Assembly (NCBI GenBank): GCA_963846795.1 | Contig: CAWJXJ010000010.1 | Span: 35,673 to 99,672, forward strand | Origin: an uncultured Acidobacteriaceae bacterium | GTDB lineage: Bacteria; Acidobacteriota; Terriglobia; Terriglobales; Acidobacteriaceae | DNA: 64,000 nt | Direction of reading: 5' to 3' | Shown: positions 1 through 46,279 of the stretch, one piece after another | Position numbering within the stretch: the first letter of the stretch is position 1 | Layout: each line of letters begins with the position of its first letter | Notes under the pieces: generated by a model | The model's input: the letters and a program-made list of their open reading frames with translations, nothing else | Database searches by the model: none | What the model was told of the DNA's origin: nothing | Position numbers and translations under genes: made by a program

Positions 1-537
1 GTAGCAGGCCCACTCGCAACGCGCCTGCCCCACGCAGCACGACGGGGTGCGCAGGTCGGAGCCCGAGCCCCCCAGGTCAAAGCCGGCCTGCGCCAGCTCC
101 TGGAAGGTCGGCTCCAGTTGGTCGGTCGTGGTGCCCAGCAGAATGACGTCGCCGGTCGAGCCGTGCATGTTGGTCAAGCCCGAGCCGTGTTTCTCCCAGA
201 TGTCGCAGATGGTGCGCAGCGCCTCGCTGGTATAGAACCAGCCCGCGGGATGGTTGATGCGCATGGTATGGAAGTGCGCGATGTTAGGAAACTGCTCGCC
301 CAGGTCGCTGTAGCGGCCAATGACGCCGCCGCCGTAGCCCAGCACCCCCACCAGGCCGCCATGTTTCCAATGGCCTTTCTTCTCCTGGTAGGAGAGTTCC
401 AGTTGTCCCAACAGGTCCTTGGGAGCATCACTGGTCTGGCAGGCAGACTTGATCTCTTTTACGAAACTGGGCCAGGGGCCCTTCTCCAGCTCGTCCAGCA
501 GCGCCGTCTTGGGCTTGCCGTTGCCTTCTTCCGCCAT
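1..537 (-). CDS. dsrA: Dissimilatory sulfite reductase alpha subunit, second copy. Only the 5' part is present (about 179 codons); the gene runs off the left window edge.
   Basis: nt 1-537 match 12440-12976 of the complete dsrA. The one difference seen is synonymous (231 A vs 12670 G, Tyr TAT/TAC). ATG at 535-537 is preceded by AAGGAGA. Confidence 0.85.
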
Positions 538-885
538 ATCTCACATTCTCCTTGGCTGGCTGGTGGCGCCGACGGTGGACTGGGGATTCGCCATGGCAGC
601 CTGGCCATCGCAGCGCTTGCCGGCGGCTGATCGGCCATGCGGTGGGGCTGCGATGGACTCGCAAATCCACTATGCCTGAGCGGCGACGCACCCTACGGTG
701 ACGTCCGTCACTCTGTTGCGTGAGAGTTAGACGAACCCAGCATGACATGCTTAACTAACTAGAACTGACAATACCTACTTAGTCGAGTGTGTTAGTCGTG
801 TTACTTATCTCACCCCCTGACCCGCTGCTTCTCCCACCCCCCTACCCCTTCCCAATTATCTTCGTAACTACTCTCCACCCTACCC
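1..885. repeat. Copy 1 of an approximately 885-bp direct duplication (dsrA 5' half plus about 350 bp of upstream leader).
   Basis: Offset 12439 to copy 2. Virtually identical up to about 830. A 1-nt indel and scattered substitutions occur at 830-885, then the copies diverge completely. Confidence 0.95.
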
Positions 886-1309
886 GCTATTAATGGAGCT
901 TCACATCTTGTGCTCTATCACGCTATCCGACTTCGATACCGCTGCTGACTATTTCGGCTTACCAATAAATACGAGTTCTACTCATCGCTTTATTTAGGCT
1001 AATTACCTAAGACGCATATATGCACTGCGTCATAGCAACTCTATGCGAGCCGAGGTCGAGCAGTTTCTATCCCAGGTCCGACAATTTCCAAAGGAGCATT
1101 TGAATGGTGAGGGATTTTCAGAATATCGACACCAACGGATTGGGCGCAGATGGCCCGCACTGCAATGGCTGCGGTATCGAGTCACCTTGCTCCCCGGCCG
1201 CGAGCCATAACTGGTCTGCAGCAGGTGGCGCAATTGTACTCGGCAGCTAAGATGAACTATGCGATACTATCTATGGGAAGGAATATATTGAGTACATAGA
1301 GACTACTTA

Positions 1310-1975
1310 ATGCCGCTATTTCCAATTTTTCTAAAACTAGAGAGCCGCCTATGCGTTGTCGTGGGTGCCGGCAAGATTGCAGCCGGCAAGGCTGCCGGAC
1401 TACTCAGCGCCGGCGCTAACGTTGTGGTAATCGCACCCCGCGGAAATGACTGGATTCGGCAGCAGGAACGCGCGGGAAATTTGACCTGGAAGCGGCGCGC
1501 GTTTTCACCGGAAGACGTCTCCGGGGCTACGCTGGTGGTTGCCGCGACTAATTTGAAAGAAACTAACGAAGCTGTGTTTCACGCCTGCGTGCAGCATGGT
1601 GTGCTATGCAACGTCGTCGACGACCCCAATCACTGCGACTTCTTCTATCCCTCGGTGGTACGCCGCGGCGCTCTTCAGATCGCCATTTCAACAGCAGGGA
1701 AAAGCCCCTCCCTGGCCCGCAGGCTGCGTAAAGAATTGGAGCAGCAATTCGGGTCTGAGTACGCGGCCTGGGTGGAGTATCTAGGCAGGATGCGCTCAGA
1801 GGTGCTGCGTCGCAGTGTTACTCCTCAGGAGCGGCAGGCGCTAATAGAGGAACTCTCAAGCGGCGCCGCATTTGAGCAGTTCGTTGCAGCCCAGCCGCGT
1901 GCGCGACGAACGAAGCAGAAAGCGAAAAACCTCGACCATGATGCGGCGATGGACCGCAGATCTTCGAAGCGATGA
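1310..1975 (+). CDS. Precorrin-2 dehydrogenase / sirohydrochlorin ferrochelatase (siroheme synthase N-terminal-domain type, SirC/Met8/CysG-N like).
   Basis: 221 aa. Begins MPLFPIFLKL..CVVVGAGKIAAGKAAGLLSAGANVVVIAP (Rossmann fold), which is typical of this family. Divergent to dsrA copy 1. Confidence 0.75.
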   Translation: MPLFPIFLKLESRLCVVVGAGKIAAGKAAGLLSAGANVVVIAPRGNDWIRQQERAGNLTWKRRAFSPEDVSGATLVVAATNLKETNEAVFHACVQHGVLCNVVDDPNHCDFFYPSVVRRGALQIAISTAGKSPSLARRLRKELEQQFGSEYAAWVEYLGRMRSEVLRRSVTPQERQALIEELSSGAAFEQFVAAQPRARRTKQKAKNLDHDAAMDRRSSKR

Positions 1976-2153
1976 TCGCGCCATCTTCTTGCCCTAATGA
2001 CTCTTCCACGCTGAAACGCCCGCAATCAGGAGATCGGGGAGAGTCCCGGGGGATAAGCTCGCTCCGGCGCGTTGTTCGCCGCCACGATTCGCTTCGTCCG
2101 AATTCCTGTTGGCTGAGGCCGTGACGTTCTGGCCTTGCCTGGAGGAGCAGTCC

Positions 2154-2507
2154 TTAGTACGAATGCGTGCCCAGCACAACCTGAACCTTGTATCGCTTCT
2201 CCAGCCTCATCTTCAGATCATCGAAGTCTATCGGGCATTGGCTGGTCTCCATAGCAGATTTCATGCAGGTGCCGAGGTGGATGACTTCGATGTTACGGTC
2301 AAGGTTATCTGCAGTTTCCGTCAATAACCTGACTCTTGCCAGCGTCAAGCCCGGGCAGTCACCGCAATCCGTCATGGCCACCAAATCGATTTGATCGTGC
2401 CGGGCGAATTCTCCGTTTTTCTCAGCGATCCCCTTGTAGCACTTGGCACATGCAACGCATGAATGGTCTTTGATACGTTTACAGTAGAGAATTGCGATCT
2501 TTGCCAT
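2154..2507 (-). CDS. CGGC-domain-like Cys-rich protein.
   Basis: Start taken at MAKIAILYCKRIKDHSCVACAKC; also has DCGDCPG. GAAAGG lies upstream of the ATG at 2507. Confidence 0.55.
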   Translation of the reverse strand: MAKIAILYCKRIKDHSCVACAKCYKGIAEKNGEFARHDQIDLVAMTDCGDCPGLTLARVRLLTETADNLDRNIEVIHLGTCMKSAMETSQCPIDFDDLKMRLEKRYKVQVVLGTHSY

Positions 2508-2675
2508 GAGCCTTTCCTTTCCGGTGAAGCACTGCCTTAAGTTGTCAGCCAGCGACAAACGTCACTGTGGATGTATAGGCCGCGATGAAAGTCTCCGCGG
2601 AGTCGCGCGAGTGTAGCACCCGGCAGCATCACTCCTCCGCCAGCCACCTTGGCTTAAGCCAATAGTTCGCTCTCT

Positions 2676-3389
2676 CTACTCAAATGCCGACTGTGTCTTC
2701 CATTCCTTCCACACGTTGCCCACGAGGTCGATTCCCGGTTTTAGCGTTGGCTTGCCGGGACGCCAACCCGAGGGCGTTGCTAAAGTACCTTTCGACGCAC
2801 GGACTAACTGGAAGGCCTCAATCTGGCGGATTGACTCCAGAACATTGCGTCCGACGGGCGGCGTCAGAACCTCATAACCCTGAATGACGCCATCCGGATC
2901 GATCAGAAAACGGCCGCGCGTCTCCACCCCGGCGTCTTCGTCGTATACGCCATATACGCTGCCAACATGGCCGCCCGCATCCGACAACATGGGAAAGGGC
3001 ACACCTCCGGTGACCATCTTGCATAATTCTTGGTCGTTCCACATCTTGTGAACGAACATGCTGTCGACGCTCGCCGACAACACTTCCACACCAAGCTTCT
3101 GAAACTCAGGGTATTTCTCGGCGACCGCCGAGAGTTCCGTGCTTCAAATAAAGGTAAAGTCACCCGGATAGAAGCACAGCAGCACCCATTTCCCGAGATA
3201 TTCGGAGAGTTTAAGATTGATGAACTTGCCTTGGTGAAATGCCGGAGCAGTGAAATCCGGTGCCTTCCTTCCGATCAGGATCACTTTGGATATCTCCTTC
3301 CCTGCTTGATGTTCGTTCTCTTTCGGAGCCGTTCCAGACACCGTTCTGCTAACCGGTCGAGCACAACCAGCATTCAACTCTTCAGACAT
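2676..3389 (-). CDS. Peroxiredoxin (AhpC/Prx family) with an in-frame TGA (3144-3146) at the peroxidatic Cys position; candidate selenocysteine peroxiredoxin.
   Basis: ORFs 3144..3389 and 2676..3089 share one frame and are separated only by that TGA. The junction reads [23 protein letters not shown] against the canonical FYPxDFTFVCPTE. Confidence 0.75.
3116..3133 (-). promoter_or_regulatory. SECIS-like hairpin downstream of the Prx TGA.
   Basis: On the sense strand, 10 nt after UGA: UCUCGGC-GGUC-GCCGAGA (7-bp perfect stem, GGUC loop). The loop GU lies 22-23 nt from the U of UGA. Confidence 0.6.
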
Positions 3390-3724
3390 GCTTCCTTGCC
3401 GTAGGGGTAAATACCCGTAATGCCAAATACTAGATGCAAGTTACACCTATAGTATAGTGACACTGTCAAGCTTGCGACCACCTCGCATTCATTTCGCAAT
3501 CACGCAACCCACCGTTATGGTTGGCATGCTGGTCTGGTTCTGGCTTCGGAGGTGTCTCGGGGAGCCGGAGGGGAGAGCCTGATGAATTTCGATAACGGCG
3601 TGGTCGACATCCCTCGCGAACCCCTTGTTACCTCTCTTCTATGTCGGGTCGGATCCACGCGTGAGGGATTTGTTTGACAAACGGAGAGCTAGCGAATCAA
3701 TAGCCAAGCGCCTGCCAGCGAGCT

Positions 3725-4168
3725 TCAGCACCCGGCCTTTACCACCAATACAGGACACGGAGCGTGGCGGATGACTTCTTCTGCAACGCTCCCCAGAAGA
3801 GCCCGTTTGATGCCGCAGCGCCCGTGGCAACCAATAACGATGAAGCTGGCCCCCCACTGCTTGGCGGTGTTGACGATTTCCGCCGCCGATTTTCCCGTTT
3901 GGACGAATTCGAAAGCCTTCAACCCTTCGGGCAGGTGTCCACAGAAGACGGATAGCAGTTTCCTGGCGTCGTCATGCAGGCGAGCCGTCCGCTCCGTGAC
4001 CGAAATGCCGCTCTCCAGAGCGAAATCGCTTTTGGTATCGACGACGTGTACAAACGCCACTTCGGCTCCGAGCTCGCGGGCAAGTTCAATGCCGACGTCG
4101 GCGGCATGAGCCGCAACAGGTTCGCTATCCACGGCGATGAGGACCTTCTGTAAAGGCATAGCTGTCAC
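3725..4168 (-). CDS. Universal stress protein (UspA family).
   Basis: 147 aa. KVLIAVDSEP..., and C-terminal GCHGRCGIKRALLGSVAEEVIRHAPCPVLVV. Confidence 0.85.
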   Translation of the reverse strand: MTAMPLQKVLIAVDSEPVAAHAADVGIELARELGAEVAFVHVVDTKSDFALESGISVTERTARLHDDARKLLSVFCGHLPEGLKAFEFVQTGKSAAEIVNTAKQWGASFIVIGCHGRCGIKRALLGSVAEEVIRHAPCPVLVVKAGC

Positions 4169-4285
4169 ACTCCCAAAATCGCGCGGACGCTTCGTCCGCC
4201 CGGGCCAGTATCCCTGTTTATTTCAGCGCAAGTAGAGCACGGTGCTCTGTAACATACATCACATACGGCTATGACGTAGTAGCCA

Positions 4286-5029
4286 TTACAAGCTACTCAG
4301 CAGGTGTCCCAGCTTCCTCTTCTTTGTGTTGAGATACTTCAACGCAAAGGGATTCGATGGGACCTCGCACGGGATTCGCTCTACAATCTCGATCCCGGCG
4401 TTCCGCATAGCCGCAACCTTATCTGGATTATTAGTGATAAGCCTTACTTTACTGATTCCGAGGTGCCGCAGGATTCCAGCCGGCAGTTGAAATTCACGGT
4501 AGTCGTTCTTAAGGCCGAGCCGCTCGTTGGCTTCGACGGTGTCACACCCACGGTCCTGCAACTCGTAAGCCTCCAACTTAGAGGTCAACCCGATACCTCT
4601 TCCCTCTTTCTCTTCATAGATCAGGATTCCTCTGCCCTCTTCGGCAATCATGGACAGAGCGAGCCGCAATTGCTCGCCGCAGTCGCAGCGTAGCGAACCC
4701 AGAGCATCGCCGGTAACACACTGAGAGTGAATGCGCAATAGCGGCGGCATACTCTTTAAATCGCCCATGATCAGTGCCAACGCCGTCTCGCGCCGGCAGA
4801 CTGCCGAGGCAGGTAGATCCCGTTCAAACCCAATCATGCGGAACTGGCCCCAACGGGTTGGGAAATCAACAGATGCGGTTTGTCGAATAGAATCGGGAAA
4901 TGCCGCAATGGTCATCATTACAATATCTCGAAACTGTGCTGCCGTTATGTCTCGAGGTGATTCTACGGAGTGTACGCTCTGCGGTGCGGCGGTATGGGTC
5001 ACAGACCCTGGTGATTTATGCACATACAC
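4286..5029 (-). CDS. ribA: GTP cyclohydrolase II.
   Basis: RIHSQCVTGDALGSLRCDCGEQL and EGRGIGL motifs. The true start may be an internal Met (MMTIAAF). Confidence 0.85.
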   Translation of the reverse strand: MYVHKSPGSVTHTAAPQSVHSVESPRDITAAQFRDIVMMTIAAFPDSIRQTASVDFPTRWGQFRMIGFERDLPASAVCRRETALALIMGDLKSMPPLLRIHSQCVTGDALGSLRCDCGEQLRLALSMIAEEGRGILIYEEKEGRGIGLTSKLEAYELQDRGCDTVEANERLGLKNDYREFQLPAGILRHLGISKVRLITNNPDKVAAMRNAGIEIVERIPCEVPSNPFALKYLNTKKRKLGHLLSSL

Positions 5030-5702
5030 AACTTTCGCGACACGGTGGTGCAGCTTTGGCTCCTGTGACTCCAGAGCACTGAAATTCAGCTTGAGTCAGG
5101 CTAGCAAGCGCCGGCTGTGTACCGATCTCCCTGTATATGTCGCGCTTCGAGCCTAGGTCAAAATTGCGGCGCCCACATCGGGAGAGTTCCTAGTCGTAGC
5201 TAATTCGTTCTATAAAGACTATCGATTTACATAACTATCTTCCGCCAGTCACGTCCCGCCGTGACACTGGTCACTGAAGAACCATAGTCTTCCCAATAGG
5301 ATGCCACTAGCCTTTGGCCTCAATGCCTATCTTTAGATACTATTCGCCGCGATATGCTTCGATAGGAATCTTATGCCTTTTAGTATGTATCCTATCCCTG
5401 CAGACACGGTTGTATCCATTCGGCCCCCAGAAAGCACCCCTGAGAACTTTCGTCGACTCCGAACTTTGGAAGAGGGGACACAGCACAGAGTTATGCACCT
5501 CAAGCAATAGTAATGTTCTATATGAAACATCCGTGCCTTTTGTCCCTCCATGTCCAGATTCTTCCGTGATGAGATGCGTTCCTGAGAAGCCCGCCGCAGC
5601 CTTCAATGGCTTGGAGTGGGCAGACCGGTTGCAACGACCTCCACCGGGTCGAACGCCAGACGATGCTTTCTGGGGTTTCGCAAGAAATCTCAGGAGGATG
5701 CG

Positions 5703-7224
5703 ATGCGCAGCCTTTACTCCGTAATGGCGGCAGTTTTACTCGTTGTCAGCCACTGTTTTGCAGGGTCCAGCAGTACTCAACCTAGCGATCAACCTTCCGG
5801 CCAGAACACAACACAGGCAGTTGCGTCGGCAGCGCTTGCGTCCAATCTTGAAGTTCGCATGCAGGCAATCGAGCAGAAGCTTGAGCAGCTTGAGGATCGG
5901 CTGAATGCAGTACTTCCGGCAACTCCGTCGGAAGGTCCGGCACCCACTCCCCCTGCCGATCTCGTTGAGCGCATGGACTCGCTCGACGAAAAGCTCCAGT
6001 TGCTTGAACACAATGCGAAGGTGGAGGAAGGCCCGACCGTTACCGCGGGGCGCGACACATTTTCCATCTCCAGCCCGGACAAAGCATATCGTTTGAGGAT
6101 TGGCGGTCACTTGCAGTTGGACGCCAAGTTCTTTCCCGACGACACCGGCGACCTGCTGATCAACTCTTTCAACCTTCGTCGTGCCCGACCGATTTTTGAA
6201 GGCTCGCTCGGACAATATGTGGACTTCCGGTTTATGCCGGACTTCGGCAATGGTCAAACAGCAATTTATGATGCCTACGCCGACGTCAAGGTGTCGCCTT
6301 ACCTAGTTCTGCGTGGTGGTAAATTCAAGACTCCACTTGGCCTGGAACAGCTGGAAAACGACGCTGACCTGACCTTTATCGAGCGCTCCCTGGCGACCGA
6401 CCTGGTGCAGAACCGAGATGAAGGTTTGCAAGTCTACGGAGTTATCAACCAGCGCTTCACCTATCAGTTCGCCGTGGACAATGGCGCTCCCATCGGCGCC
6501 AGTATCACCGTTCCCACGCAGGGCGGAAAGAACATGGTCGAGCGTATCTTTTTTACGCCTTTCGCTCCCACTGACAACAAAGCTTTTGAAAGGGCTTGGA
6601 CTGGGCATTGCCTCATCCCAAGGACACCAGAACCCTGGCGCCACGCTACCTACCTTTCTCAGCACCGGCGGGCAGGCTGTATTCTTTAGCTATACCGGAA
6701 CGGCGTTGGTTAAATCTCCGTTTACAGATGGAAGCCTGACCAATATTTCGCCGCAGGCATACTACTATGCGGGCCCATTTGGTTTAATGGCCGAGTATGT
6801 AAGCTCCTCGCAAGACATTGGCGGAACAACCGTCGACAAAAAGACGATCGTGCGTGCCATCGACAATCATGCCTGGCAGATAGCTGCCTCATGGATACTT
6901 AGCGGCGAACCGAGTTCCTACAAAGCTATAGTGCCGTGCAAATGCCTTGAAAGCGGCCATCAGGTCAGAGGTTGGGGTGCGTGGCAGTTAGCCGCACGTT
7001 ATTCGCAACTGACGGTGGATCCGGATGCGTTTACTGCTGGATTGGCGGACATTACAAAATCGGCCAGGGCTTCGTACGACTGGGCCGTAGGCCTGAACTG
7101 GTACATAAACTTCTTCACCAAGCTACAAACAGATTACGAACAGTCAACGTTTACTCGCGGCGCTGTGAACGGTAATCGGCCAACCGAGCACGCCATCATG
7201 GAGAGGTTACAGATCGCTTTCTGA
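5703..7224 (+). pseudogene. Phosphate-selective porin O/P (OprO/OprP-like) outer-membrane porin, interrupted by a 1-nt frameshift.
   Basis: ORFs 5616..6689 and 6418..7224 join as ...FTPFAPTDNKA / LKGLGLGIASSQG if one T of the T4 run at 6584-6587 is removed. Has a signal peptide (MRSLYSVMAAVLLVVSHCFA), a coiled-coil N-terminus and a C-terminal ...LQIAF. Length 1522 = 3n+1. Confidence 0.7.
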
Positions 7225-7291
7225 AGATGAGCATGGCGTCTGCCCCCCCCGCACCTAAACTCGGCGAGAGCAGCGTTGGCGTCCATAAAGC

Positions 7292-7318
7292 TGGCCACAG
7301 CTTCACGAGCTGTGGCCA
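7292..7318. terminator. Perfect 11-bp hairpin between convergent genes (possible bidirectional terminator).
   Basis: TGGCCACAGCT-TCACG-AGCTGTGGCCA. No clear U-tract. Confidence 0.4.
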
Positions 7319-7399
7319 TTAACGTGGGCTTTGGTGGGCTTCGCTGGCGCGTTCGACTGTGAGTCCGAATTCTTGTTTCTTATCGCCTGTTAAGGTATG

Positions 7400-7883
7400 T
7401 CAGGCTGTTGGAATGAGGTTAGGCCCCTGCTTCGAGCAGATCGCGTCGCTCGGCTGCACCAAGGCTGGGGTATGTGAGCTGGACGGGACAGGAAGCCTGG
7501 CGGCCTGGTCGATAATTCGCCGCACAATCTTCTCGATGTTGCCGGCAATCTGGTCCAAACCGGAATCCGGGCAGAAGGTGGTGAGCGCTGAGGCCCGCAG
7601 CGTGCCAATCCGCGTCTCGCCCGCTTCGGTGTAGACGACGATCGGACACGGCAGCATGAGAGCCACGTTAACGTCTTTCTGCAGCACCTCATTGGCATAG
7701 CGCGCGTTACAAACTTCGACGATCTTCAGGGGACCGTGACTGATTCCATCGGAGCACAGGAGTGGCCGCAACATCGCAGGTATGTATCACCTGGCACCCA
7801 TTTTCCACCACGCTCTTTTCCAACTCATCGACTGCGGCGTCGAACAGCTTCGTGGTGGCTACGGTGTAGAGAAATCTTTTCAG
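7400..7883 (-). pseudogene. DUF302-domain protein, frameshifted.
   Basis: ORF 7400..7774 carries KIVEVCNARYANEVLQKDVNVALMLPCPIVVYTE. The N-terminal part (LKRFLYTVATTKLFDAAVDELEKSVVENGCQVIHTCDVAAT) lies in another frame upstream. The join needs a 1-nt deletion near 7757-7762. Length 484 = 3n+1. No canonical start was found (a CTG follows GGAGG). Confidence 0.5.
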
Positions 7884-8209
7884 CTCGAGCCTCCAGCCCC
7901 GCGTATCCTGACACCCTCAAGGCCCGGCGTCAGATCCTGAAGTTCGCAACCACATGGGTCAGCGTATCAGCGCGATCGCGAGTCGCCAATGCATGACAGT
8001 GGATGTGGCTACTCCTACGTTCTTCGAGATGGGCGCGCCAACTGCGTGAAAACATGCCCGACCGACAGACGCTCCACGCATCTTTCGCGGCGAGCGCTTC
8101 GTGCGAGCAACTAAAGCCAGGTGTCCGGCGAAGCCGCGCCGCCATTCGTTAATGCGAATCTCCCGTTGCGCTCAGCATTGCACGGACTGGGCGCGAGAGG
8201 TCATTGTAC

Positions 8210-8527
8210 CTAGACGCAGCCCGTAGGTTTGGGGAGGCCGGCCAGTTTGCAGGCGCCTTTAGCGGGGCCGGAGGGGAACAGGTCGTAGATCTGCTTGAGG
8301 GTGAAGCCGGTCTCCTTGCACACCTTGCGAACCATGGGCGCGATGCCGAACTGCAGGTAATAATTGCGAATGTAGTTGATCACTTTCCAGTGCGCGTCGG
8401 TCAGTTGGCTGATCGATTCTGTCTCCGCGAAGTCGGTCGCTACCTTCTCGCACCAGCTCTCCGGCTGCTGCAGGAATCCATCCTCATCCACGTCGTAGGT
8501 TGTTCCGTGTACTGCGAATGTCGGCAC
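8210..8527 (-). CDS. dsrC: DsrC (sulfite reductase gamma-like / TusE family) with both conserved C-terminal cysteines.
   Basis: 105 aa ending GACKLAGLPKPTGCV (Cys-x10-Cys-Val). Confidence 0.9.
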   Translation of the reverse strand: MPTFAVHGTTYDVDEDGFLQQPESWCEKVATDFAETESISQLTDAHWKVINYIRNYYLQFGIAPMVRKVCKETGFTLKQIYDLFPSGPAKGACKLAGLPKPTGCV

Positions 8528-8542
8528 AGTCTGACCTCCTGA

Positions 8543-10201
8543 TCAGTTCATTTCGATATAGCCGCAAGGACACGCCTCGGCGCACTTCTTGCAGCCGTTA
8601 CATAACTCCAGTTTCACCTTGTAGTGTTCGCCCTTGGGCAGGCGCACGAAGCAGCTATTGCTGCAGTACATCCAGCAGGTCTCGCAATCCATGCACATGC
8701 CGCAGGACATACAGCGCTTGGCCTCTTCCACCACGTCGGCTTCGGTCAAGCCCAGTTCCACTTCGGTGTCAGGCTCGCGCTCGGCCACTGCCACATGCTG
8801 CCGCTCGTGCCGCGGCGCCGCCTTGTACCACTCCGGATGCACCTTGTCTTTGCCCACCAGCACCGGCACCGCCGGCTTCTGCAGCGGAACCCCGCGCAAG
8901 CGGGCATCGATGGCCTCGGCAGCAAAGCGCCCCTGGGCAATGGCGATGGTCACCAGCCCCAGGTCGGTATCATCCCCGCCGGCATAGACGCCGTCGACCG
9001 GGGTCACCCCGTAGTCGCCGGTCTTGATCCAGTCTTTTCCCGAATGCAACTCGTCGAAGCCCGCAAACTCCGGCTCCTGGCTGATGGCGGCAATGATGGC
9101 CGTCACCGGCAGCTCAAACTCGCTGCCTTCGATCGCCACCGGCCGCCGCCGTCCTGAGGCATCCGGCTCGCCCAGCTTCATGCGCAGCGAGCGCAGCGCG
9201 ACAGCGCGTCCCTCCGCCTGCAGCACCTCGACCGGCGCCGCCAGGAACTCGATCTTCACACCCTCTTCAATCGCGCCTTCAATCTCGGAAGCCGCTGCCG
9301 GCATCTCCGCCCGCGTCCGGCGATAAAGCAGCGTCACATCGGCGCCCAGCCGGTGGCTTACCCGTGCGGCATCGATTGCCGTATCCCCGCCGCCGATCAC
9401 CATCACCTTCTCGCCGATCTCGACCTTCTCGCCGCGATTCACCAGGTTCAGAAACTCCGTCCCGCCGAAGACATTCGGCGCCTCTTCCCCCGGAATCCTC
9501 AGCCGCAAACTCTTCTGCGCCCCGATGCCGACAAACACCGCCTGGTACTGCTGGCGCAGCTCCGCCATGGTCAGCTCGCGCCCGATCATGCAATCGCACT
9601 TCAGCTCCACCCCCAAGTCCAGGATGCGTTGGATCTCCGCATCCAGTACCTCGCGCGGCAGCCGGTAGCGCGGTATGCCGTAGCGCAGCATCCCGCCGGG
9701 CTGGGGAAAGGCTTCAAACACCGTCACCGCATAGCCCCGCCGGGCCAGTTGATAGGCGCACGACAGGCCGGCCGGCCCCGCTCCCACCACCGCCACTTTC
9801 TCCGTATGGGTTCCGTTGCTCAGTTTCGAAAGCTTCAGACCCTGGCTGATGCCAAAGTCCCCGAGGAAGCGCTCGATGGCGTTCACCGCCACTCCGCCAT
9901 CCTTCGCCGTGCGGTTGCAGTTGTCCTCGCAGGGATGCGGACACACCCTCCCGCAGACCGCCGGGAACGGGTTACGTTCCGCCAGCCGCTGCCACACCTG
10001 CTCGAAGGCCTGCTGGTTCGTCTGCCCATAGGCTTCCGCCTGTGCGATGGTGGTCAGCAGCTCGCGTATCTCGTTGCCGTTGGGACAATGTCCGGCGCAA
10101 GGCGGCGACTTGGCGAGGTAGCGCGGACGCAGGGGGCTGATGTCCCCGCCCCCAGTCGCCGTCTTGATTACCGGCTTTTTAACCTCTTTGAACAGCCCCA
10201 T
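8543..10201 (-). CDS. dsrL: DsrL-like NAD(P)H:acceptor oxidoreductase (GltD-like flavoprotein with a C-terminal ferredoxin domain).
   Basis: 552 aa. N-terminal Cys clusters (CAGHCP, CGRVCPHPCEDNC), dinucleotide folds VAVVGAGPAGLSCA and VMVIGGGDTAIDAA, and a C-terminal CMSCGMCMDCETC...CNGCKKCAEACPC. Sits between dsrB and dsrC. Confidence 0.85.
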   Translation of the reverse strand: MGLFKEVKKPVIKTATGGGDISPLRPRYLAKSPPCAGHCPNGNEIRELLTTIAQAEAYGQTNQQAFEQVWQRLAERNPFPAVCGRVCPHPCEDNCNRTAKDGGVAVNAIERFLGDFGISQGLKLSKLSNGTHTEKVAVVGAGPAGLSCAYQLARRGYAVTVFEAFPQPGGMLRYGIPRYRLPREVLDAEIQRILDLGVELKCDCMIGRELTMAELRQQYQAVFVGIGAQKSLRLRIPGEEAPNVFGGTEFLNLVNRGEKVEIGEKVMVIGGGDTAIDAARVSHRLGADVTLLYRRTRAEMPAAASEIEGAIEEGVKIEFLAAPVEVLQAEGRAVALRSLRMKLGEPDASGRRRPVAIEGSEFELPVTAIIAAISQEPEFAGFDELHSGKDWIKTGDYGVTPVDGVYAGGDDTDLGLVTIAIAQGRFAAEAIDARLRGVPLQKPAVPVLVGKDKVHPEWYKAAPRHERQHVAVAEREPDTEVELGLTEADVVEEAKRCMSCGMCMDCETCWMYCSNSCFVRLPKGEHYKVKLELCNGCKKCAEACPCGYIEMN

Positions 10202-10211
10202 GGCCCTTCCC

Positions 10212-10676
10212 TCACGCGTACGGATACAGGTTGCGTTTGAAGTCTTCCAGCTGATTCAGCAGCCGGTCATGCTTCTGCTCGTCCTCGGTCAGGTAGGTCA
10301 GCAGGTGCCGCTGCACGAACAGCCGGCAACTCTTGCGCGCCTTCTCCGCCAGCTCCAGCGTTTCCTTCTCCGCCGCCGCGTGCTGTTCGATCAGGTCCCA
10401 CACCTCGCCCAGCTCTTCCGGGGTCAGGCTGAAGGCCTGCTTCTCCACACTGTCCAGAATCGCCTGCTGCACCCGCTTGTGCATGGCCGAGTCCTGGCGG
10501 ATGATCTCCATCACCAACTGGATCAGCGGATTGTGCGTCTTGCCGATGATGGCCGAGGTCTGCGCGATACTTTCCTGCTCGATCTCCTGCCAGCGCCGCA
10601 AGACGGTCTTCAGTTCGTCCAGGTTGCCGGCCGCCGGCTTCGCAACTGCTTGCTTCGTGATTGTCGACATGCTCAC
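10212..10676 (-). CDS. Uncharacterised all-helical 154-aa protein inside the dsr operon (possible ferritin-like / four-helix-bundle fold).
   Basis: Tightly packed between dsrB (12-nt gap) and dsrL (10-nt gap). Charged helical sequence with ExxH-type spacing (EDEQKH, SAMHKRV). I cannot assign a family. Confidence 0.7.
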   Translation of the reverse strand: MSMSTITKQAVAKPAAGNLDELKTVLRRWQEIEQESIAQTSAIIGKTHNPLIQLVMEIIRQDSAMHKRVQQAILDSVEKQAFSLTPEELGEVWDLIEQHAAAEKETLELAEKARKSCRLFVQRHLLTYLTEDEQKHDRLLNQLEDFKRNLYPYA

Positions 10677-10688
10677 TGTCTCCCCTCC

Positions 10689-11777
10689 TTAGTAGCGGAC
10701 ATGCGCTGAGCGGGCAAAGGTCAGCCCCGCGTGCTTGAAGTCGTCAATGTGGTAGCGGGTGAACTCGAAGCCGGTCAGCTGGAAGAAACGCGGCCAGCCC
10801 ACCCGCTCGATCCACTCGCCCATGCGCTCATACTTGCGGGCATGCTCGGCGTACACCTTGACGATGGTGGTCACCGCGTCCACCACTTCCGGCCAGCGCG
10901 GCGGGTTGTTGGGCAAAAACGGTATCGCCAGCTTGGAGAACTTCGGCGTACTGCGCGCGTTGCTCACCTTGCCCCCGACCCAGATCGAGAGCCCGTCGTT
11001 TTCCGGATCGGCCAGCGGCATGGCCGGGCACACCGTGTAGCAGTTGCCGCAGTACATGCACTGTTCCTCGATCACTTCCACCGAGTTCGTGCCCCCCACC
11101 GTCGCCGGCCGGATCGCCCCGGTCGGGCAGGAAGAGATCAGCGTCGGCACCTCGCATACCCGCGGCAGCAGTTCGTGCTTGATCTGCGGCGGCTTGCGGT
11201 GAACCCCCAGAATGGCGATATCGGAGCAATGCACCGCCCCGCACATGTTCAGGCAGCAGGCCAGCGCGATGCGCAACTTGGCCGGCAGGTCCTCATGCGT
11301 GAAGTGCTCGCACACCGCGTCCATCACCGCCTTCACGATGCCCGAGGCGTCGGTCGCCGCCGAGTGGCAATGCACCCAGCCCTGGGTGTGCACGATGTTG
11401 CTGATCGAGTTGTTGGTCCCGCCCACCGGAAAACCATTCGCCAACAGCTCCTGCTTCAACGGCTCGATCTGGCTCGCGTCCTCCAGCAGAAACTCAACGT
11501 TGTTGCGGCTGGTGAAGCGCAGATAGCCGCCGCAGTACTTGTCCGCCAGCGCGGCGAACAGGCGCAGCGTCTGGATGCTGATCAGCCGTGGCGAGGCGGC
11601 GCGCACCGTATACAGCCGCGCCCCCGACTCGGCTACGTGGCACAGCACTCCCGGCGCCAGGTTCTCGTGATACTTCCATAGCCCGTAGTTCTGCTTCACT
11701 AGCGGCGGCAGGAACTTGTCATAGGACGGCGGCCCTATATCGGTCAGTCTGGGTTGCGCAGTCACGGTCGTGCTCAT
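10689..11777 (-). CDS. dsrB: Dissimilatory sulfite reductase beta subunit.
   Basis: 362 aa. [16 protein letters not shown] and the ferredoxin motif [16 protein letters not shown] overlap with dsrA. Confidence 0.95.
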
Positions 11778-12976
11778 TGCTCACCTCCCTGGACTTTCTG
11801 TTGGAAGTAGATATATGGGTTGTCACGCGGCGCCGACACCATCTCCGGCACCGGATCCAGGCCAATGCCATCCAGAAACGCCGGCATTCCGATGCGCTGA
11901 ATCATCTCCCCCACTCGTTCCCGGTTCTTGCCGTACTCGTCCCAGAACTCCCAGATCCGCCCCACCAGCTCCTTGATCGTCTCTTCCAGCTCCGCGGCGG
12001 GAACGAACGGGATCAGCACCGACGACAGCAGCGCCCCCTGCATGATCGGCGCCTTGGCCCCGATCAAAAGCACCGCTCCCCGCTCTTTGCCCGGCCGCAG
12101 CGCCTTGGGCATCACGTTGATGCAGTGCATGCAATGCACGCATTCATGGTTCTGAATGCTCACCTGCTTGCCGTCCCACTGGAAACTCTTGGCGGGACAC
12201 ATCTCGCAGATCTCCTTCTGGATGTCCATCCCCGCCGCCACATACTTGGCCACTTCCGCCTGGTCCACCTGCATCTCGTCCTTCCAGGTGCCAATCACCG
12301 ACAGGTCGGCGCGCGCCGCCGAAGCCACGCAGTCATTGGGGCAGCCCGCACACTTGATCTTGAACTTGTAGGCGAAGGCCGGCCGGTGCAGCTCGTCCTG
12401 ATAGTTCATGGTCAGGTCGTAGCACAGCTTCATGGTGTCGTAGCAGGCCCACTCGCAACGCGCCTGCCCCACGCAGCACGACGGGGTGCGCAGGTCGGAG
12501 CCCGAGCCCCCCAGGTCAAAGCCGGCCTGCGCCAGCTCCTGGAAGGTCGGCTCCAGTTGGTCGGTCGTGGTGCCCAGCAGAATGACGTCGCCGGTCGAGC
12601 CGTGCATGTTGGTCAAGCCCGAGCCGTGTTTCTCCCAGATGTCGCAGATGGTGCGCAGCGCCTCGCTGGTGTAGAACCAGCCCGCGGGATGGTTGATGCG
12701 CATGGTATGGAAGTGCGCGATGTTAGGAAACTGCTCGCCCAGGTCGCTGTAGCGGCCAATGACGCCGCCGCCGTAGCCCAGCACCCCCACCAGGCCGCCA
12801 TGTTTCCAATGGCCTTTCTTCTCCTGGTAGGAGAGTTCCAGTTGTCCCAACAGGTCCTTGGGAGCATCACTGGTCTGGCAGGCAGACTTGATCTCTTTTA
12901 CGAAACTGGGCCAGGGGCCCTTCTCCAGCTCGTCCAGCAGCGCCGTCTTGGGCTTGCCGTTGCCTTCTTCCGCCAT
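11774..12976 (-). CDS. dsrA: Dissimilatory sulfite reductase alpha subunit.
   Basis: 400 aa. [25 protein letters not shown] and [13 protein letters not shown] motifs. RBS AAGGAGA. Confidence 0.95.
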
Positions 12977-13325
12977 ATCTCACATTCTCCTTGGCTGGCT
13001 GGTGGCGCCGACGGTGGACTGGGGATTCGCCATGGCAGCCTGGCCATCGCAGCGCTTGCCGGCGGCTGATCGGCCATGCGGTGGGGCTGCGATGGACTCG
13101 CAAATCCACTATGCCTGAGCGGCGACGCACCCTACGGTGACGTCCGTCACTCTGTTGCGTGAGAGTTAGACGAACCCAGCATGACATGCTTAACTAACTA
13201 GAACTGACAATACCTACTTAGTCGAGTGTGTTAGTCGTGTTACTTATCTCACCCCCTGACCCGCTGCTTTCCCACCCCCCTACCCCTTCCCAATTATCTT
13301 CATAACTACTTCACACCCTACTCGC
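12440..13325. repeat. Copy 2 of the approximately 885-bp duplication.
   Basis: See copy 1 (1-885). Confidence 0.95.
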
Positions 13326-14114
13326 CGAAAGTAGGTTATCTTAACCAGTGGCCATAAATCGTCTGTATTATGCAGATGTCATCGCCAACTATAGTAATAC
13401 AGGCATAAAAACTGATGATTTGTATTGTCTCGTCAATATAGTCTCGTAGTTACTGTATAGCGTCGAATGGCCATAGAATCGCTGATATATCTTGACTGCT
13501 CGCTATCTAATCGTAAATAGCTGGCCCCATCCAGGCGATATATATGAATGCGACATTGCAGAAGTTACATTTTCGAAATAACTCTATCGAGATGGTAGAC
13601 AATCTATAGTTGCTGGTTCTGCTTGGATAATAGTTCTCTTCTCACGTATGAACGTGACCCCGGTCACCGCAATAGACATCTGCCACAGTGCATAGTCAAC
13701 TAGTTCGATGATTCAGGGCCGCAATTCTGCCCTGCGAACACAGCAAAACATGTTGCGCGACGAGAGTTGTCACGGCGGCGATGAGGATCGGGCTGAGCAG
13801 GTCCGGCGAGACCAGGCGAACAGTGTCCTCCTGGTTTCAACGGATGCACGCGACTGCTTGACCACAGCGTTGCCGGGCAGTTCCCAGCGATCACCGCCTG
13901 ACTGTCACTACTGACGATCACTCCAGATGGATTCCAGACTGCCACGGCAGTCGGCTATTTGCGAAGAAGATGCTTACGATTCACAGTTCGGTTCGGCTTC
14001 ATTCAATGGTTTACCCGAGCAATACCGCAGTTTCTTCGCAGGTGCAGTCCGTCGGGGCCACACATATACCCCTGTTCGAGGCCGCCGGCAAACGCGACGG
14101 CCGGGAGGTGCTTA

Positions 14115-14573
14115 GTGCCGAGTTACGTAATTCCTGATAAATGCGATGGGTGCAAGGCGTTGGACAAAACAGCCTGCCAACACATTTGCCCCAACGATCT
14201 GATGGTGCTCGACAAGGAAAAGATGAAGGCTTACAACCGCGATCCTATGATGTGCTGGGAGTGCTACAACTGCGTGAAGATTTGCCCCACCCAGGCAGTG
14301 CAGGTTCGTGGCTATGCCGACTTCGTTCCCTTGGGAGCATCCGCGGTTCCTCTCCGCTCCACCGACACCATCCTCTGGACTGTCACGTTCAGGGATGGCA
14401 CGCTGAAGCGTTTCAAATTCCCCATCCGTAGCACACCGGAAGGCACAGCGGTACCGAGTGGTGGTTTTGAGACCAAAGCGGATCTCAACAGCACCGCCCT
14501 CTACACCGAGCCGGCCTCACTGGGCTTGCCCGAGGTGGTTGGTTTAAGCAAAACCGGAGGTGCTCATGCCTAA
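14115..14573 (+). CDS. aprB: Adenylylsulfate (APS) reductase beta subunit.
   Basis: GTG start after GGGAGG. (M)PSYVIPDKCDGCKALDKTACQHICPNDLMVLD and CWECYNCVKICP. The long upstream extension of ORF 13959.. is not AprB-like. Confidence 0.9.
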   Translation: MPSYVIPDKCDGCKALDKTACQHICPNDLMVLDKEKMKAYNRDPMMCWECYNCVKICPTQAVQVRGYADFVPLGASAVPLRSTDTILWTVTFRDGTLKRFKFPIRSTPEGTAVPSGGFETKADLNSTALYTEPASLGLPEVVGLSKTGGAHA

Positions 14574-16509
14574 GTTCGAAACTGTTGTAGTAGAAACTGA
14601 TGTCTTGATTCTGGGCGGTGGCATGGCAGCCTGTGGCGCCGCTGTAGAGGCCGCTTATTGGGCCAAGCAGAACGGTCTGAAAGTGGTCTTGGTAGACAAA
14701 GCCGCAGTCGATCGCTCTGGAGCCGTGGCCATGGGTCTGTCGGCCATCAACCAGTACGTTGGGCTGAAGGATGGCACCAACACCCTGAAGGACTATGTTG
14801 ACTACGTCCGCAACGATCTCATGGGCGTCACCCGTGAGGACCTGGTAGCCAACATTGCCCGTCACGTGGACTCTTCCGTCCATCTCTTCGAGAAGTGGGG
14901 TCTGCCCATCTGGAAGGACAAGGACGGCAAGTACGTTCATGAAGGCCGTTGGCAGCTCATGATCAACGGCGAGTCCTATAAGGTGATCGTCGCCGAAGCG
15001 GCCAAGAACGCGTTCCGCGAAACAGGTGTAGGAGAGATTTACGAACGCGTGTTCATCGTTGGTCCGCTGCTGGATGGGGACCGCTGCGCCGGCGCGGTGG
15101 GCTTCTCTATCCGCGAGAACAAGCTGTTCATCTTCCGGGCGAAAGCAACCCTGGATGCAATGGGCGGCGCGGTCCACGTATTCAAACCCCGGAGCAGTGG
15201 CGAAGGTATGGGCCGCGCGTGGTATCCACCGTGGAATTCCGGCTCCTCCGCCTACTTCACTCTCAAGGCCGGGGCGGAAATGACCTGCCAGGAAGTGCGG
15301 TTCATCCCGGTGCGTTTCAAGGATGCCTACGGACCGGTGGGTGCATGGTTCCTTCTGTTCAAGTCGCGTGCCACCAACGCCATGGGCGGCAATTACATGG
15401 TGGAGCGCGCAGCAGAATTGGAGAAGTGGGGACCTTACGGGCGGGTAAAGCCGGTTCCGGCCAACCTGCGCAACTATCTTGGAATGCTCGACGTGCTGGA
15501 TGGAAAAGGGCCGATTTCAATGCGTACGGAAGAAGCCCTGACCAAGATCGCCGATCAGTACAAGGACGACCCCAAGGCCTACCAGAAAAAGATGAAGGAG
15601 TTGGAGTCGGAAGCCTGGGAAGACTTCCTCGACATGACGATTTCGCAAGCTATTCTGTGGGCCGCAACCAATGTGCGACCGGAACAGAAGAGCTCCGAGA
15701 TCGCCGCTGCCGAGCCTTACTTCATTGGCTCCCACTCCGGTGCCTCCGGCGCCTGGGTCAGCGGTCCCGAAGACCTGCAAACCGGTGAAACCAAGTCGCA
15801 ATACTTCTGGGGATATCCCTGCATGTCAACCGTGAAAGGGTTGTTCTGCGCAGGGGATGCTTCCGGCGCATCGAGCCACAAGTTCTCCTCCGGCTCGCAT
15901 GCGGAAGGTCGTATCGCTGCCAAGGCTGCGGTAAAGTACGTGGTCGATAACAACACCCTACCCAAGCTGGATCAGGCTGCCATCGACAAGCTGGCCGCCG
16001 AAATCCTGCAGCCGATGGAGACGTTCGAGAAGAATAAGAACGCCACCACCGACGAAGATGTCAATCCCAACTACATCAAACCGCGCTCGTTCATGTTCCG
16101 TTTGCAGAAGATCATGGACGAATACGCCGGTGGGGTGACTGCCCAGTTCATGACCAACAAGCCCCAGTTAGAGCGGGCCCTCGAACTACTGGCCTTTCTG
16201 AAGGAAGACTCGGATAAGCTGGCCGCTTCGAACCTGCACGAACTGATGCGCTGCTGGGAGAACGTGCACCGTATGTGGCAGGCGGAAGCGCACGTCCGCA
16301 CGGTGCTGTTCCGTGAGGAGACGCGTTGGCCGGGCTACTACTTCCGTTCGGATACACCCAAGCTGGATGAAGACAAGTGGCACGTCTTCGCCAACTGCCG
16401 GTGCGATCCCGCCACTGGAAAGTGGGAGATGCTGACTCGTCCCATTCTCCACGTGTTCGAGACAGTAAAAACCAAAGAGCCGGAGCCGGTAGCGGCAGCG
16501 GCCCGTTAA
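14566..16509 (+). CDS. aprA: Adenylylsulfate (APS) reductase alpha subunit.
   Basis: MPKFETVVVETDVLILGGGMAACGAAVEAA (FAD fold). About 647 aa. 8-nt overlap with aprB. RBS GGAGG. Confidence 0.95.
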   Translation: MPKFETVVVETDVLILGGGMAACGAAVEAAYWAKQNGLKVVLVDKAAVDRSGAVAMGLSAINQYVGLKDGTNTLKDYVDYVRNDLMGVTREDLVANIARHVDSSVHLFEKWGLPIWKDKDGKYVHEGRWQLMINGESYKVIVAEAAKNAFRETGVGEIYERVFIVGPLLDGDRCAGAVGFSIRENKLFIFRAKATLDAMGGAVHVFKPRSSGEGMGRAWYPPWNSGSSAYFTLKAGAEMTCQEVRFIPVRFKDAYGPVGAWFLLFKSRATNAMGGNYMVERAAELEKWGPYGRVKPVPANLRNYLGMLDVLDGKGPISMRTEEALTKIADQYKDDPKAYQKKMKELESEAWEDFLDMTISQAILWAATNVRPEQKSSEIAAAEPYFIGSHSGASGAWVSGPEDLQTGETKSQYFWGYPCMSTVKGLFCAGDASGASSHKFSSGSHAEGRIAAKAAVKYVVDNNTLPKLDQAAIDKLAAEILQPMETFEKNKNATTDEDVNPNYIKPRSFMFRLQKIMDEYAGGVTAQFMTNKPQLERALELLAFLKEDSDKLAASNLHELMRCWENVHRMWQAEAHVRTVLFREETRWPGYYFRSDTPKLDEDKWHVFANCRCDPATGKWEMLTRPILHVFETVKTKEPEPVAAAAR

Positions 16510-16515
16510 CAGGTC

Positions 16516-16544
16516 GCGAGGTCCCGCGATAACCGGGACCTCGC
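16516..16544 (+). terminator. Strong intercistronic hairpin just after the aprA stop (attenuator or mRNA-stabiliser candidate).
   Basis: GCGAGGTCCCG-CGATAAC-CGGGACCTCGC, an 11-bp perfect stem. No U-tract. Confidence 0.45.
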
Positions 16545-16566
16545 ACCCTCATACAAAGGTTGGCCC

Positions 16567-16854
16567 ATGGCCGAGGAATCACAAAAAGTTTGTCCCCATT
16601 GCCACCGACCATTGGTGCGCTGGAAGAATCCCCCGCTGGCCTCTTGGGACGGCGAATACCAGTATGTGTGCTTCAACGATGACTGCGCCTATTTTGTGGG
16701 CGGCTGGGTATGGATGAAGGACCGTTTCAATGTGAATGCTTCCTATCGCTATCGCCTGGAGCCGAACACCGGGGACAGTGGTCCGCTGCCCGTGTGGTCG
16801 CGCGACGCGATGAAGAGCAATATTTTGCCGGACGAGGATGGACGAGATGTCTGA
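16567..16854 (+). CDS. Small Cys-rich (zinc-ribbon-like) protein of unknown function.
   Basis: 95 aa with CPHC...VCFNDDC. Lies between aprA and qmoA and overlaps the next gene. Confidence 0.6.
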
Positions 16855-17680
16855 AAACCAGGTAACACCCGAGCAGATTCTGCAGGAAAGCCCGCGCCTG
16901 AAGCTGGACAGTTGCTTCAACTTCGCCTGCGGACCCGATAAAGACTGTTTCAATTCCTGCTGCCACGACGTGGCAATTCTGCTTTCACCCTACGACGTGC
17001 TGCGGCTTAAGCATGCACTTAAGATGAACTCTTCCGAGTTTCTTGAGAAGTACACGCTCACCACCGCCTCTCACGACAAGCGTGTTCCCGCCGTCCTGCT
17101 CAAGATGGACGAGCAGAGCCTGAAGTGTCCTTTGGTGAGCCAGCAAGGTTGCACCGTCTATGCCAACCGCCCGTGGGCCTGCCGCATGTATCCGCTGGGG
17201 ATGGCTGAGCCCAAAGGTCCACAAGGCGCGGAGCAACGTTTTTATTTCATGGTCGAAGAAAAGCTCTGTCACGGACACGGCACGGGCAAGGAGTGCTCGG
17301 TGCGGGAGTGGATCGAGAACCAGGACATTGAGCCTTTCGACGAAATGCAGACTCCGTTTTTGGAATTCATGTCGCATCCGGGATGGGAGAAGCCGGAGGA
17401 GTTGAGCGCCGATTGTATGGCGATGTACTTCATGGCGCTGTACGACCTGGACCGCTTCCGCCGTTTTGTGTTCGACACCCGCTTCCTGGAACTGTTCGAA
17501 GTGGACGAGGCGCGCCTTCAGGCCCTGGCCGATGATGACGCAGAGTTGCTGGAGTTCGCCATCGACTGGCTGTCGTTCAGTCTGTTTCATGAGAAGCGGA
17601 TGAGGCTGAGAAAGCCCATCGCGTCCGCACCGTTGGCCACCTGCGGCGCAAGCCAAGCTAGCGCGAGTTCACCGGCCTAG
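16838..17680 (+). CDS. YkgJ/UPF0153-like putative Fe-S or Zn-chelating protein (CxxCxxCC family).
   Basis: [17 protein letters not shown] and [23 protein letters not shown]. An alternative start exists at 16847. Confidence 0.7.
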
Positions 17681-17686
17681 AGGATT

Positions 17687-45484: not shown

Positions 45485-46180
45485 GGCCGACTCAGCTTAG
45501 CCCAGTGCGCAGCGAAGCGGAGCGCTGGGTAGGGGCAGGATGACCATCGGAGCCCCAGCGGGGCTCCAAGGATTTACAGAACTCACCCAAATACGAATCG
45601 CGGATCGTATTCGAGTCCAGACTTCTTCAACAGCGTTAGAAACTCCTGCTCGAAGCTCCACGTCTTATGATGTTCCGCTTGTCCATCGATGTAATCGATA
45701 ACTACCTGGCGTTGCGATTGCGAAACGCTAAAGGCACCATAGCCCTCCTGCCATGAGAATCTGCATCCATGTTCGCCGATCCAGCGGGAACTGTGCGCCT
45801 TCAGGTCGCGCAATCCTGTCGAAAGGCACATGGCTGGAGAAATTCCGAGAAGAAGATGTACGTGATTCGTTGTACCGCCCGCAGCCATCAACAGTAGCTT
45901 CTTATCTCGAGCAACAACCCCCAAGTAGCGCCAGAGGGCCTCGGGATCCGGAATGTTGTCAGTCCGCCCCTTCGTGCTAAAGACGCAATGGACCAACATG
46001 GAGGAATAGGTGTGGGACATGCTTGCAGGGTACGGGAAGCGCCCATTGCGTTCGGTGATATCTGGCACAGTCCGGTGCTCAGCAAATCGCTCAGCGTAAG
46101 AGCCCCTACCGGGGCTCTGATTCATTGGCTACCTTACCCAGCGCTCCGCTTCGCTACGCGCTGGGCTAAGCTAAGTCGCC
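45485..46180. mobile_element. RayT (REP-associated tyrosine transposase) unit flanked by inverted REPs.
   Basis: Left REP 45485-45531 is the reverse complement of right REP 46135-46180 (TACCCAGCGCTCCGCTTCGCT.CGC.CTGGGCTAAGCT.AGTCG). Inner GC hairpins lie at 45549-45567 and 46099-46118. Confidence 0.8.
45583..46020 (-). CDS. rayT: IS200/IS605-like Y1 transposase of the REP-associated (RayT) type.
   Basis: MSHTYSSMLVHCVFSTKGR...NHVHLLLGI...SSRWI...WQEGYGAFSVS (HUH and Tyr regions). Confidence 0.85.
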   Translation of the reverse strand: MSHTYSSMLVHCVFSTKGRTDNIPDPEALWRYLGVVARDKKLLLMAAGGTTNHVHLLLGISPAMCLSTGLRDLKAHSSRWIGEHGCRFSWQEGYGAFSVSQSQRQVVIDYIDGQAEHHKTWSFEQEFLTLLKKSGLEYDPRFVFG

Positions 46181-46279
46181 CCTTCGGGGCTGTCGTAATC
46201 AAGCCCGTAACGCGATCCTTGCAGGCCGACAAGATGTTCTACCCAGGTTCTGCGCCAGCGTGGTGTCGCTTGGGATAAT

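Follow-up and report, generated by a model that had tools for sequence, protein, structure and literature searches.

The near-identical DNA at the left end of the window (the whole 64,000-nt stretch of contig that was analysed) is best explained as one end of a genuine intragenomic duplication, in an uncultured Acidobacteriota (Terriglobia) bacterium, of the 5.1-kb core dissimilatory sulfite reductase operon together with 349 nt of its upstream region. According to this explanation, copy 1 would be in the ancestral place (dsrV <> dsrAB...C-dsrT-dsrMKJOP, where <> marks divergent neighbors) and copy 2 would be derived, lying 7.3 kb away and head-to-head with aprBA. Both copies would be intact, encode essentially the same proteins and be driven by the same promoter, in which a CRP/FNR-like palindrome lies ~42 nt before the presumed start. 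The duplication would be fairly young, and the near-identity of the copies (~99.6%) would most likely also be maintained by recombination or gene conversion that takes place now and then. That the duplication is real is almost certain, and the full explanation, including exchange between the copies and a co-regulated dosage of their products, is held with moderate confidence.

A preliminary description of this DNA had reported an 885-nt match between two dsrA loci, and this was confirmed by a repeat search and pairwise alignment, in which window positions 1-887 match 12440-13325. A match of this length at >99% identity cannot have arisen by chance. Both dsrA genes are on the minus strand, with the ATG at 537 in copy 1 and at 12976 in copy 2, and the lone coding substitution between their 5′ parts is at 232 (A) versus 12671 (G), one nucleotide away from where it had first been placed (231/12670). 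The change had rightly been called synonymous, as the two 179-aa DsrA N-terminal translations are identical. The leader regions of both copies are identical up to 830, where they are followed by a 1-nt indel at 831 within a G-rich run and by substitutions at 864, 873-875, and 884, and similarity between the loci ends at 887/13325 with unrelated sequence beyond, much as had been described. The gene opposite copy 1, previously termed siroheme-synthase-like, is by profile match CysG-N-terminal/precorrin-2 dehydrogenase-like (1310-1975, plus strand), a gene known as dsrV in the dsr clusters of acidobacteria (PMC6018796), and gene annotation likewise places aprBA opposite copy 2. The term "dsrA 5′ half" used for the repeat is a product of the window cut at position 1, and the stretch noticed first is the right-hand 17% of the duplicated operon (Table 1).

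Table 1. Coordinates in the window of the two operon copies, their leaders, and neighboring elements
Feature	Position	Strand	Remarks
Copy 1 dsrA, 5′ part, 179 codons	1..537	-	Pfam NIR_SIR_ferr; protein the same as that of copy 2
Copy 1 duplicated promoter/leader, ~350 nt upstream of dsrA ATG	538..887	-
GTGAC-N4-GTCAC palindrome (core GTGA-N6-TCAC), copy 1	698..711	-	23 nt, then CATAGT (674-669)
Unique 7.3-kb spacer between copies	888..8209		Pfam-annotated genes
Copy 2 dsrC	8210..8527	-	PF04358, TIGR03342; repeat ends at stop codon
Copy 2 dsrL-like NAD(P)H oxidoreductase, 552 aa	8543..10201	-	
Copy 2 conserved 154-aa protein	10212..10676	-	Syntenic in relatives; not DsrD
Copy 2 dsrB	10689..11777	-	TIGR02066, 509 bits (cutoff 341.5)
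Copy 2 dsrA, 400 aa	11774..12976	-	TIGR02064, 579.5 bits (cutoff 392.85)
Copy 2 duplicated promoter/leader	12977..13325	-	Outer ~25 nt (13302-13325) with copy-specific substitutions
GTGAC-N4-GTCAC palindrome, copy 2	13137-13150	-	CATAGT at 13113-13108
aprB-side promoter-like element, outside repeat	13654..13696	+	Palindrome 13654-13667, 23 nt, CATAGT 13691-13696
aprBA, divergent from copy 2, then qmoABC and sat	14115..16509	+	

The full extent of the duplicated unit was defined by BLAST. It is a direct repeat of 5,116 nt, of which copy 2 is window 8210-13325, and it contains 349 nt of promoter/leader followed by dsrA, dsrB, a gene for a conserved 154-aa protein, dsrL, and dsrC. The repeat boundaries are sharp and one of them is exactly at the dsrC stop codon (8210). 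The guess that the repeat extends into a full second dsrAB was not only correct but exceeded, as in three sister assemblies the whole of dsrA-dsrB-154aa-dsrL-dsrC lies to the left of the position where the window starts. The DNA in that region, where dsrB and more had been anticipated, contains the full 400-aa copy 1 dsrA, then dsrB and the remaining three genes of the unit, and continues with dsrT-dsrMKJOP. The window cuts copy 1 at position 1, and its left 4.2 kb are therefore deduced from strains that are 99.8% identical.

Both DsrA and DsrB exceed the curated equivalog cutoffs for dissimilatory sulfite reductase (TIGR02064, TIGR02066), and the cluster is called reductive-type acidobacterial by its context (dsrT-MKJOP and aprBA-qmoABC-sat) and by its nearest matches, which are to Acidobacteriota MAGs. 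No dsrEFH genes were seen in the dsr cluster context. The spacer between the copies contains, according to Pfam, genes for the dsrV-like protein, CGGC, AhpC, Usp, ribA, a porin, and DUF302. The gene encoding the 154-aa protein, located between dsrB and dsrL, had no match in Pfam, NCBIfam, or PDB sequences, and the protein is not DsrD. The protein is apparently helix-rich as judged from its sequence, and the gene keeps this position in many Acidobacteriota as well as in some Ignavibacteria and further dsr clusters (tblastn identity, 44-88%); it may be one of the "syntenic genes of unknown function" of Hausmann et al. (2018).

Three sister contigs were found in ENA by exact-protein look-ups with the dsrV-like protein, DsrB, DsrA, DsrC, and AprB, namely ERZ25039467 contig_34591 (strain A, 436 kb), ERZ25039458 contig_39467 (strain B, 220 kb), and ERZ25039540 contig_5258 (strain C, 1.27 Mb). 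All are Microflora Danica assemblies of uncultured Acidobacteriota from soils and sediments. The window has ~99.8% identity to each of them in unique DNA and is identical to none, and it must therefore represent a fourth strain or assembly. The gene order is the same in all, sat-qmoCBA-aprAB <> [leader-dsrA-dsrB-154aa-dsrL-dsrC] - spacer - dsrV <> [leader-dsrA-dsrB-154aa-dsrL-dsrC] - dsrT(RsbRD_N)-dsrMKJOP, with the spacer genes in the order DUF302, porin, ribA, Usp, AhpC, CGGC, and dsrV from copy 2 to copy 1, and each contig (220 kb, 436 kb, and 1.27 Mb) carries both copies, 12.4 kb apart.

Three origins had initially been considered for the repeat, a very recent duplication, ongoing gene conversion, and an assembly collapse or chimera. 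The last of these, that a false duplication or chimera was created from strain mixtures during long-read metagenome assembly, would be helped by the facts that these are metagenome assemblies and that the length of the repeat is close to that of many reads. Against this, the order and junctions are identical in four independent assemblies, in which each copy has its own locus and is bordered on either side by unique DNA that the other copy lacks, and several junctions are crossed by separate contigs from other sources. The NCBI MAG contig JBAPQI010000004.1 starts within copy-2 dsrC, of which it has the last 127 nt, crosses the entire spacer, and continues into the leader, dsrA, and dsrB of copy 1. 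A second NCBI MAG contig, JBAPQI010000605.1, spans the edge of copy 2 that faces aprB, and in Logan contigs, which come from different SRA runs, dsrC leads into either dsrT or the DUF302 flank, so that both dsrC-end junctions are crossed. In addition, five fixed paralog-specific sites that distinguish copy-1 from copy-2 sequences recur across strains. Bases diagnostic of one copy or the other lie at window 11157, 11133, 9797, and 9257. The same architecture in four assemblies, together with the junction-crossing NCBI and Logan contigs, makes an assembly artefact very unlikely, and next to no probability is assigned to it; recent duplication and gene conversion both remain. One feature of the second NCBI contig could be cited for an artefact. 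Positions 1-83 of JBAPQI010000605.1 (GCA_049280535.1) are coding-like, are unrelated to the repeat, to which they are joined at a point ~25 nt inward from the outer edge of copy 2, and have no match among the sequences compared in this analysis. They are probably a chimeric contig end, and they could represent an alternative junction.

The sister assemblies were generated with metaFlye/Medaka from Nanopore reads only (PMC12313526), and 1-nt indel errors are visible in them. In the window, the gene for the phosphate-selective porin (5616-7224, plus strand) is interrupted by a 1-nt insertion near 6582-6584, absent from strains A and C and from the NCBI contig, and so appears as two ORFs, and further 1-nt indels are found in short runs at 7250 (a G8 run) and 7760. 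These are likely Nanopore consensus errors, and they bear on the trust that can be placed in single-base indels.

The relatives of this lineage indicate which of the copies came first. Among GTDB genomes and JGI contigs, the nearest relatives (78-88% identity in DsrA) all belong to Acidobacteriota/Terriglobia and are all single-copy, with the arrangement dsrV <> dsrAB-(154aa)-dsrL-dsrC-dsrT-dsrMKJOP and with aprBA often a few kb past dsrV. Of 160 related loci examined in GTDB genomes and JGI metagenomes, none has a second dsrA, dsrB, dsrL, or dsrC within 10 kb. With the exception of dsrV, the spacer genes are absent from the corresponding interval of the relatives, and this lineage alone has copy 2 and the 7.3-kb spacer. 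Since copy 1 keeps the neighbors of the close relatives on both sides, it is on gene context the ancestral copy, and copy 2, beside aprBA, the derived one.

How copy 2 came to lie beside aprBA is a separate question. An origin from a mobile element was rejected, as there are no inverted repeats or mobility genes at the boundaries. Inverted repeats of at least 40 nt are lacking in window 1-20000, no transposase, integrase, or tRNA is found near the copies, where the flanking genes are metabolic, and the repeat boundaries share no microhomology beyond the repeat itself. It is also conceivable that copy 2 was not copied within the genome and was instead gained as a lateral dsr cassette, by homologous or illegitimate recombination from a close strain. 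The spacer genes and the position of copy 2 are without counterpart in the relatives and the repeat is a neat unit that ends at the dsrC stop codon, both of which would suit such an acquisition. It is nevertheless highly improbable, because copy 2 and the resident copy have 99.6% identity, which extends to non-coding DNA, while the nearest other lineages reach at most 88% in DsrA, and because transposase, integrase, tRNA, and inverted repeats are all missing nearby. The closest relative outside Denmark is on a 4.4-kb contig (L123, JGI Ga0335085_10076682; DsrB 95%, DsrC 95%) with the apparent order dsrA-dsrB-(154aa, partial)-dsrC and no dsrL, which may be an operon variant.

In strain B (ERZ25039458), where all five genes are intact in both copies, copies 1 and 2 (B1 and B2) differ by 21 substitutions in 5116 nt, and only two codon changes alter the protein, such that there is one residue difference in the 154-aa protein, one in DsrL, and none in DsrA, DsrB, or DsrC. 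In general, the copies differ by ~0.4%, and almost all of the differences are synonymous. With copy 2 of strain A (ERZ25039467) excepted, the distances between paralogs are 17-35 substitutions versus 11-19 between orthologs, so the paralogs within a genome are not closer to each other than are orthologs between genomes. Most of these distances would be accounted for if the duplication slightly predated the radiation of the strains.

As the paralog distances exceed the ortholog distances by only a modest amount, most strains also fit a duplication that is real but simply young and has experienced no gene conversion. A paralog divergence of ~0.4% is only two to three times that between strains, and the differences between B1 and B2 have no visible clustering, by an eye estimate from the variant table. 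The anomalies described below, which are a diverged copy 2 in strain A, a mosaic repeat edge, and alleles shared between the copies, would then be the result of recombination with other strains or of mis-phasing in assemblies that are Nanopore-only and contain indel errors. This reading is possible but doubtful, as all three anomalies are awkward for it.

The diverged copy 2 of strain A (A2) is 65-70 substitutions away from all of the other copies over 3,771 nt (1.8%), the stretch compared being L001 16898-20666 (ERZ25039467 contig_34591) exclusive of its dsrA and leader. The AprB, QmoA, and DsrA proteins of this locus also differ from those of the window. Its changed codons have a high non-synonymous share (41 synonymous, 25 non-synonymous) and its dsrL is broken by two extra indels; in addition, dsrL of both copies in this strain shares a +C in a GC-rich run. 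At the private sites of A2 (n = 55), the outgroups carry its base at 27-30 and the common base at 15-20, and the differences are therefore real old divergence and not sequencing error. That about half of these private bases are ancestral argues against a simply young duplication, as does the distribution of the divergence, which rises within ~300 nt outside the repeat boundary and is not spread through the flanks. The pattern fits an older duplication in which copy 2 would have been overwritten by copy 1 in the other strains. The A2 haplotype is found on one contig only, a point in favor of the young duplication, and A2 could represent a paralog in decay, have been imported from another strain, or be a chimera of the assembly.

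Signs of exchange are also found elsewhere in the repeat. The outer ~25 nt of the B2 leader are mosaic, with copy-1 bases at four sites and a copy-2 base at one, and the same mosaic edge is repeated in the independent NCBI contig JBAPQI010000605.1, a recurrence that speaks against the simply young duplication. Five polymorphisms have both alleles in both sets of copies, compared to 0.07 expected from independent hits, a number that mis-phasing of Nanopore assemblies may mimic, since an assembler or polisher may assign interior variants of a 5.1-kb repeat to the wrong copy. The outgroups were uninformative for polarizing the paralog-diagnostic sites. Taken as they are, the data lean towards some exchange between the copies, as the preferred explanation proposes, with the reservation that phasing errors in the repeat could produce similar signals. 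An extended version, put forward tentatively, is that the duplication is old, that A2 is an unconverted paralog (1.8% diverged, under relaxed constraint, and with dsrL frameshifts), and that repeated conversion of copy 2 by copy 1 maintains a second, fully functional, co-regulated DsrAB-DsrL-DsrC module in the other strains. If true, selection in this soil acidobacterium would act on the dosage of the sulfite-reducing module as a whole, and the decay of copy 2 would be visible where conversion had lapsed.

The duplicated leader contains a conserved element. When aligned with the relatives, the palindrome, the following 23 nt, and CATAGT form one conserved block in otherwise diverged intergenic DNA. 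The GTGA-N6-TCAC core is kept upstream of dsrA in four lineages and is also found at aprB, with sites before dsrA and some aprB genes in the relatives at L025 9853 and 6025, L026 9852 and 5363, and L028 9795. The window has four perfect palindromes, all of which are intergenic (698-711 and 13137-13150 in the dsrA leaders, 13654-13667 on the aprB side, and 5261-5274), and 10 sites with one mismatch or fewer, compared to 1.8 expected. The palindrome at 5261-5274 sits between ribA and the porin gene.

The spacing of GTGA-N6-TCAC is that of CRP/FNR-type half-sites, and in Desulfovibrio, HcpR-type sites of the CRP/FNR family have been proposed to lie before genes for sulfate reduction. With CATAGT as the −10 element, the palindrome would be centered near −42, the position of a class II activator. 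The arrangement before both dsrA and aprB, with GTGA-N6-TCAC ~42 nt upstream of the presumed start, resembles CRP/FNR class II promoters; the −10 element and start site here come from conservation only. The palindrome is a candidate CRP/FNR-type operator of a sulfur-respiration regulon. A standard promoter was also sought but a scan with the sigma-70 consensus had no match in either intergenic region, and a riboswitch or structured leader was dropped after an Rfam gathering scan without a match and a fold of the presumed 5′ UTR with z = 0.14. As the duplication carried the complete promoter, the signal that acts on aprBA should also act on both copies. Furthermore, with the same promoter and the same proteins, the two copies should be turned on at the same time, with twice as much template for DsrAB, DsrL, and DsrC, the putative outcome being a co-regulated dosage of these proteins.

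Duplicated dsr genes are known in other organisms. In Chlorobaculum tepidum the duplicated block is dsrCABL, which is the gene set A, B, L, and C as seen here. The genome of Chlorobaculum (Chlorobium) tepidum has two nearly identical dsrAB copies, one of which is frameshifted (PMC2702494), and this dsrAB duplication is the closest precedent. The present case differs in that the cluster is of the reductive acidobacterial type, by context and nearest relatives, that at least one strain has two intact copies, and that the promoter is duplicated as well. More than one dsrAB(L) set is also present in Nitrospirae CG2_30_53_67, Desulfopila/Desulforhopalus strains, and an Actinomycetota MAG, in which distinct oxidative and reductive sets were proposed to allow a switch in direction (PMC7596348; bioRxiv 10.1101/2023.06.27.546762). 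By contrast, the copies described here are ~99.6% identical and encode the same proteins. The layout of the locus matches that of the acidobacterial dsr clusters of Hausmann et al. (2018), which have dsrAB, syntenic unknown genes, a dsrL-dsrC pair, dsrT-MKJOP, and dsrV/N/Wa, with aprBA-qmoABC-sat nearby (PMC6018796). In term searches, duplication or copies are not mentioned in that paper (PMC6018796), nor dsr or sulfite reductase in the Microflora Danica long-read paper (PMC12313526). A literature search found no published report of this acidobacterial dsr operon duplication.

A broader parallel is provided by concerted evolution, as in tufA/tufB and rRNA operons, where dispersed direct repeats of several kb stay near-identical and alleles are shared between copies. 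The dsr repeats resemble these in being several-kb direct repeats that are near-identical within a genome and apparently share alleles between copies, and differ from them in that a single lineage is involved and the signs of conversion are indirect and depend on assembly phasing.

The duplication is thus a new example of a known phenomenon rather than a new kind of system and is a fairly ordinary gene duplication that does not overturn current understanding. It matters mainly for gene dosage and for the counting of dsrAB genes, and possibly as a small case of concerted evolution. The dsrAB genes are the standard marker for sulfate- and sulfite-reducing microbes, and two near-identical copies inflate gene-based estimates of dsrAB abundance about twofold. 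The repeat also breaks short-read assemblies at this locus, as seen in the fragmented contigs of the NCBI MAG. Whether these acidobacteria use the dsr pathway for reduction or for oxidation is still debated. The content of the duplicated unit, a promoter together with DsrAB, DsrL, and DsrC, suggests selection for more capacity of the soluble sulfite-reducing module in a terrestrial acidobacterium, and the palindrome common to dsrA and aprB is a testable handle on the regulation of sulfur respiration in these uncultured organisms.

The sole Rfam match in the window is an Acido-Lenti-1 sRNA at 46137-46191 on the plus strand (50.5 bits; gathering score 37), which is consistent with an acidobacterial origin.
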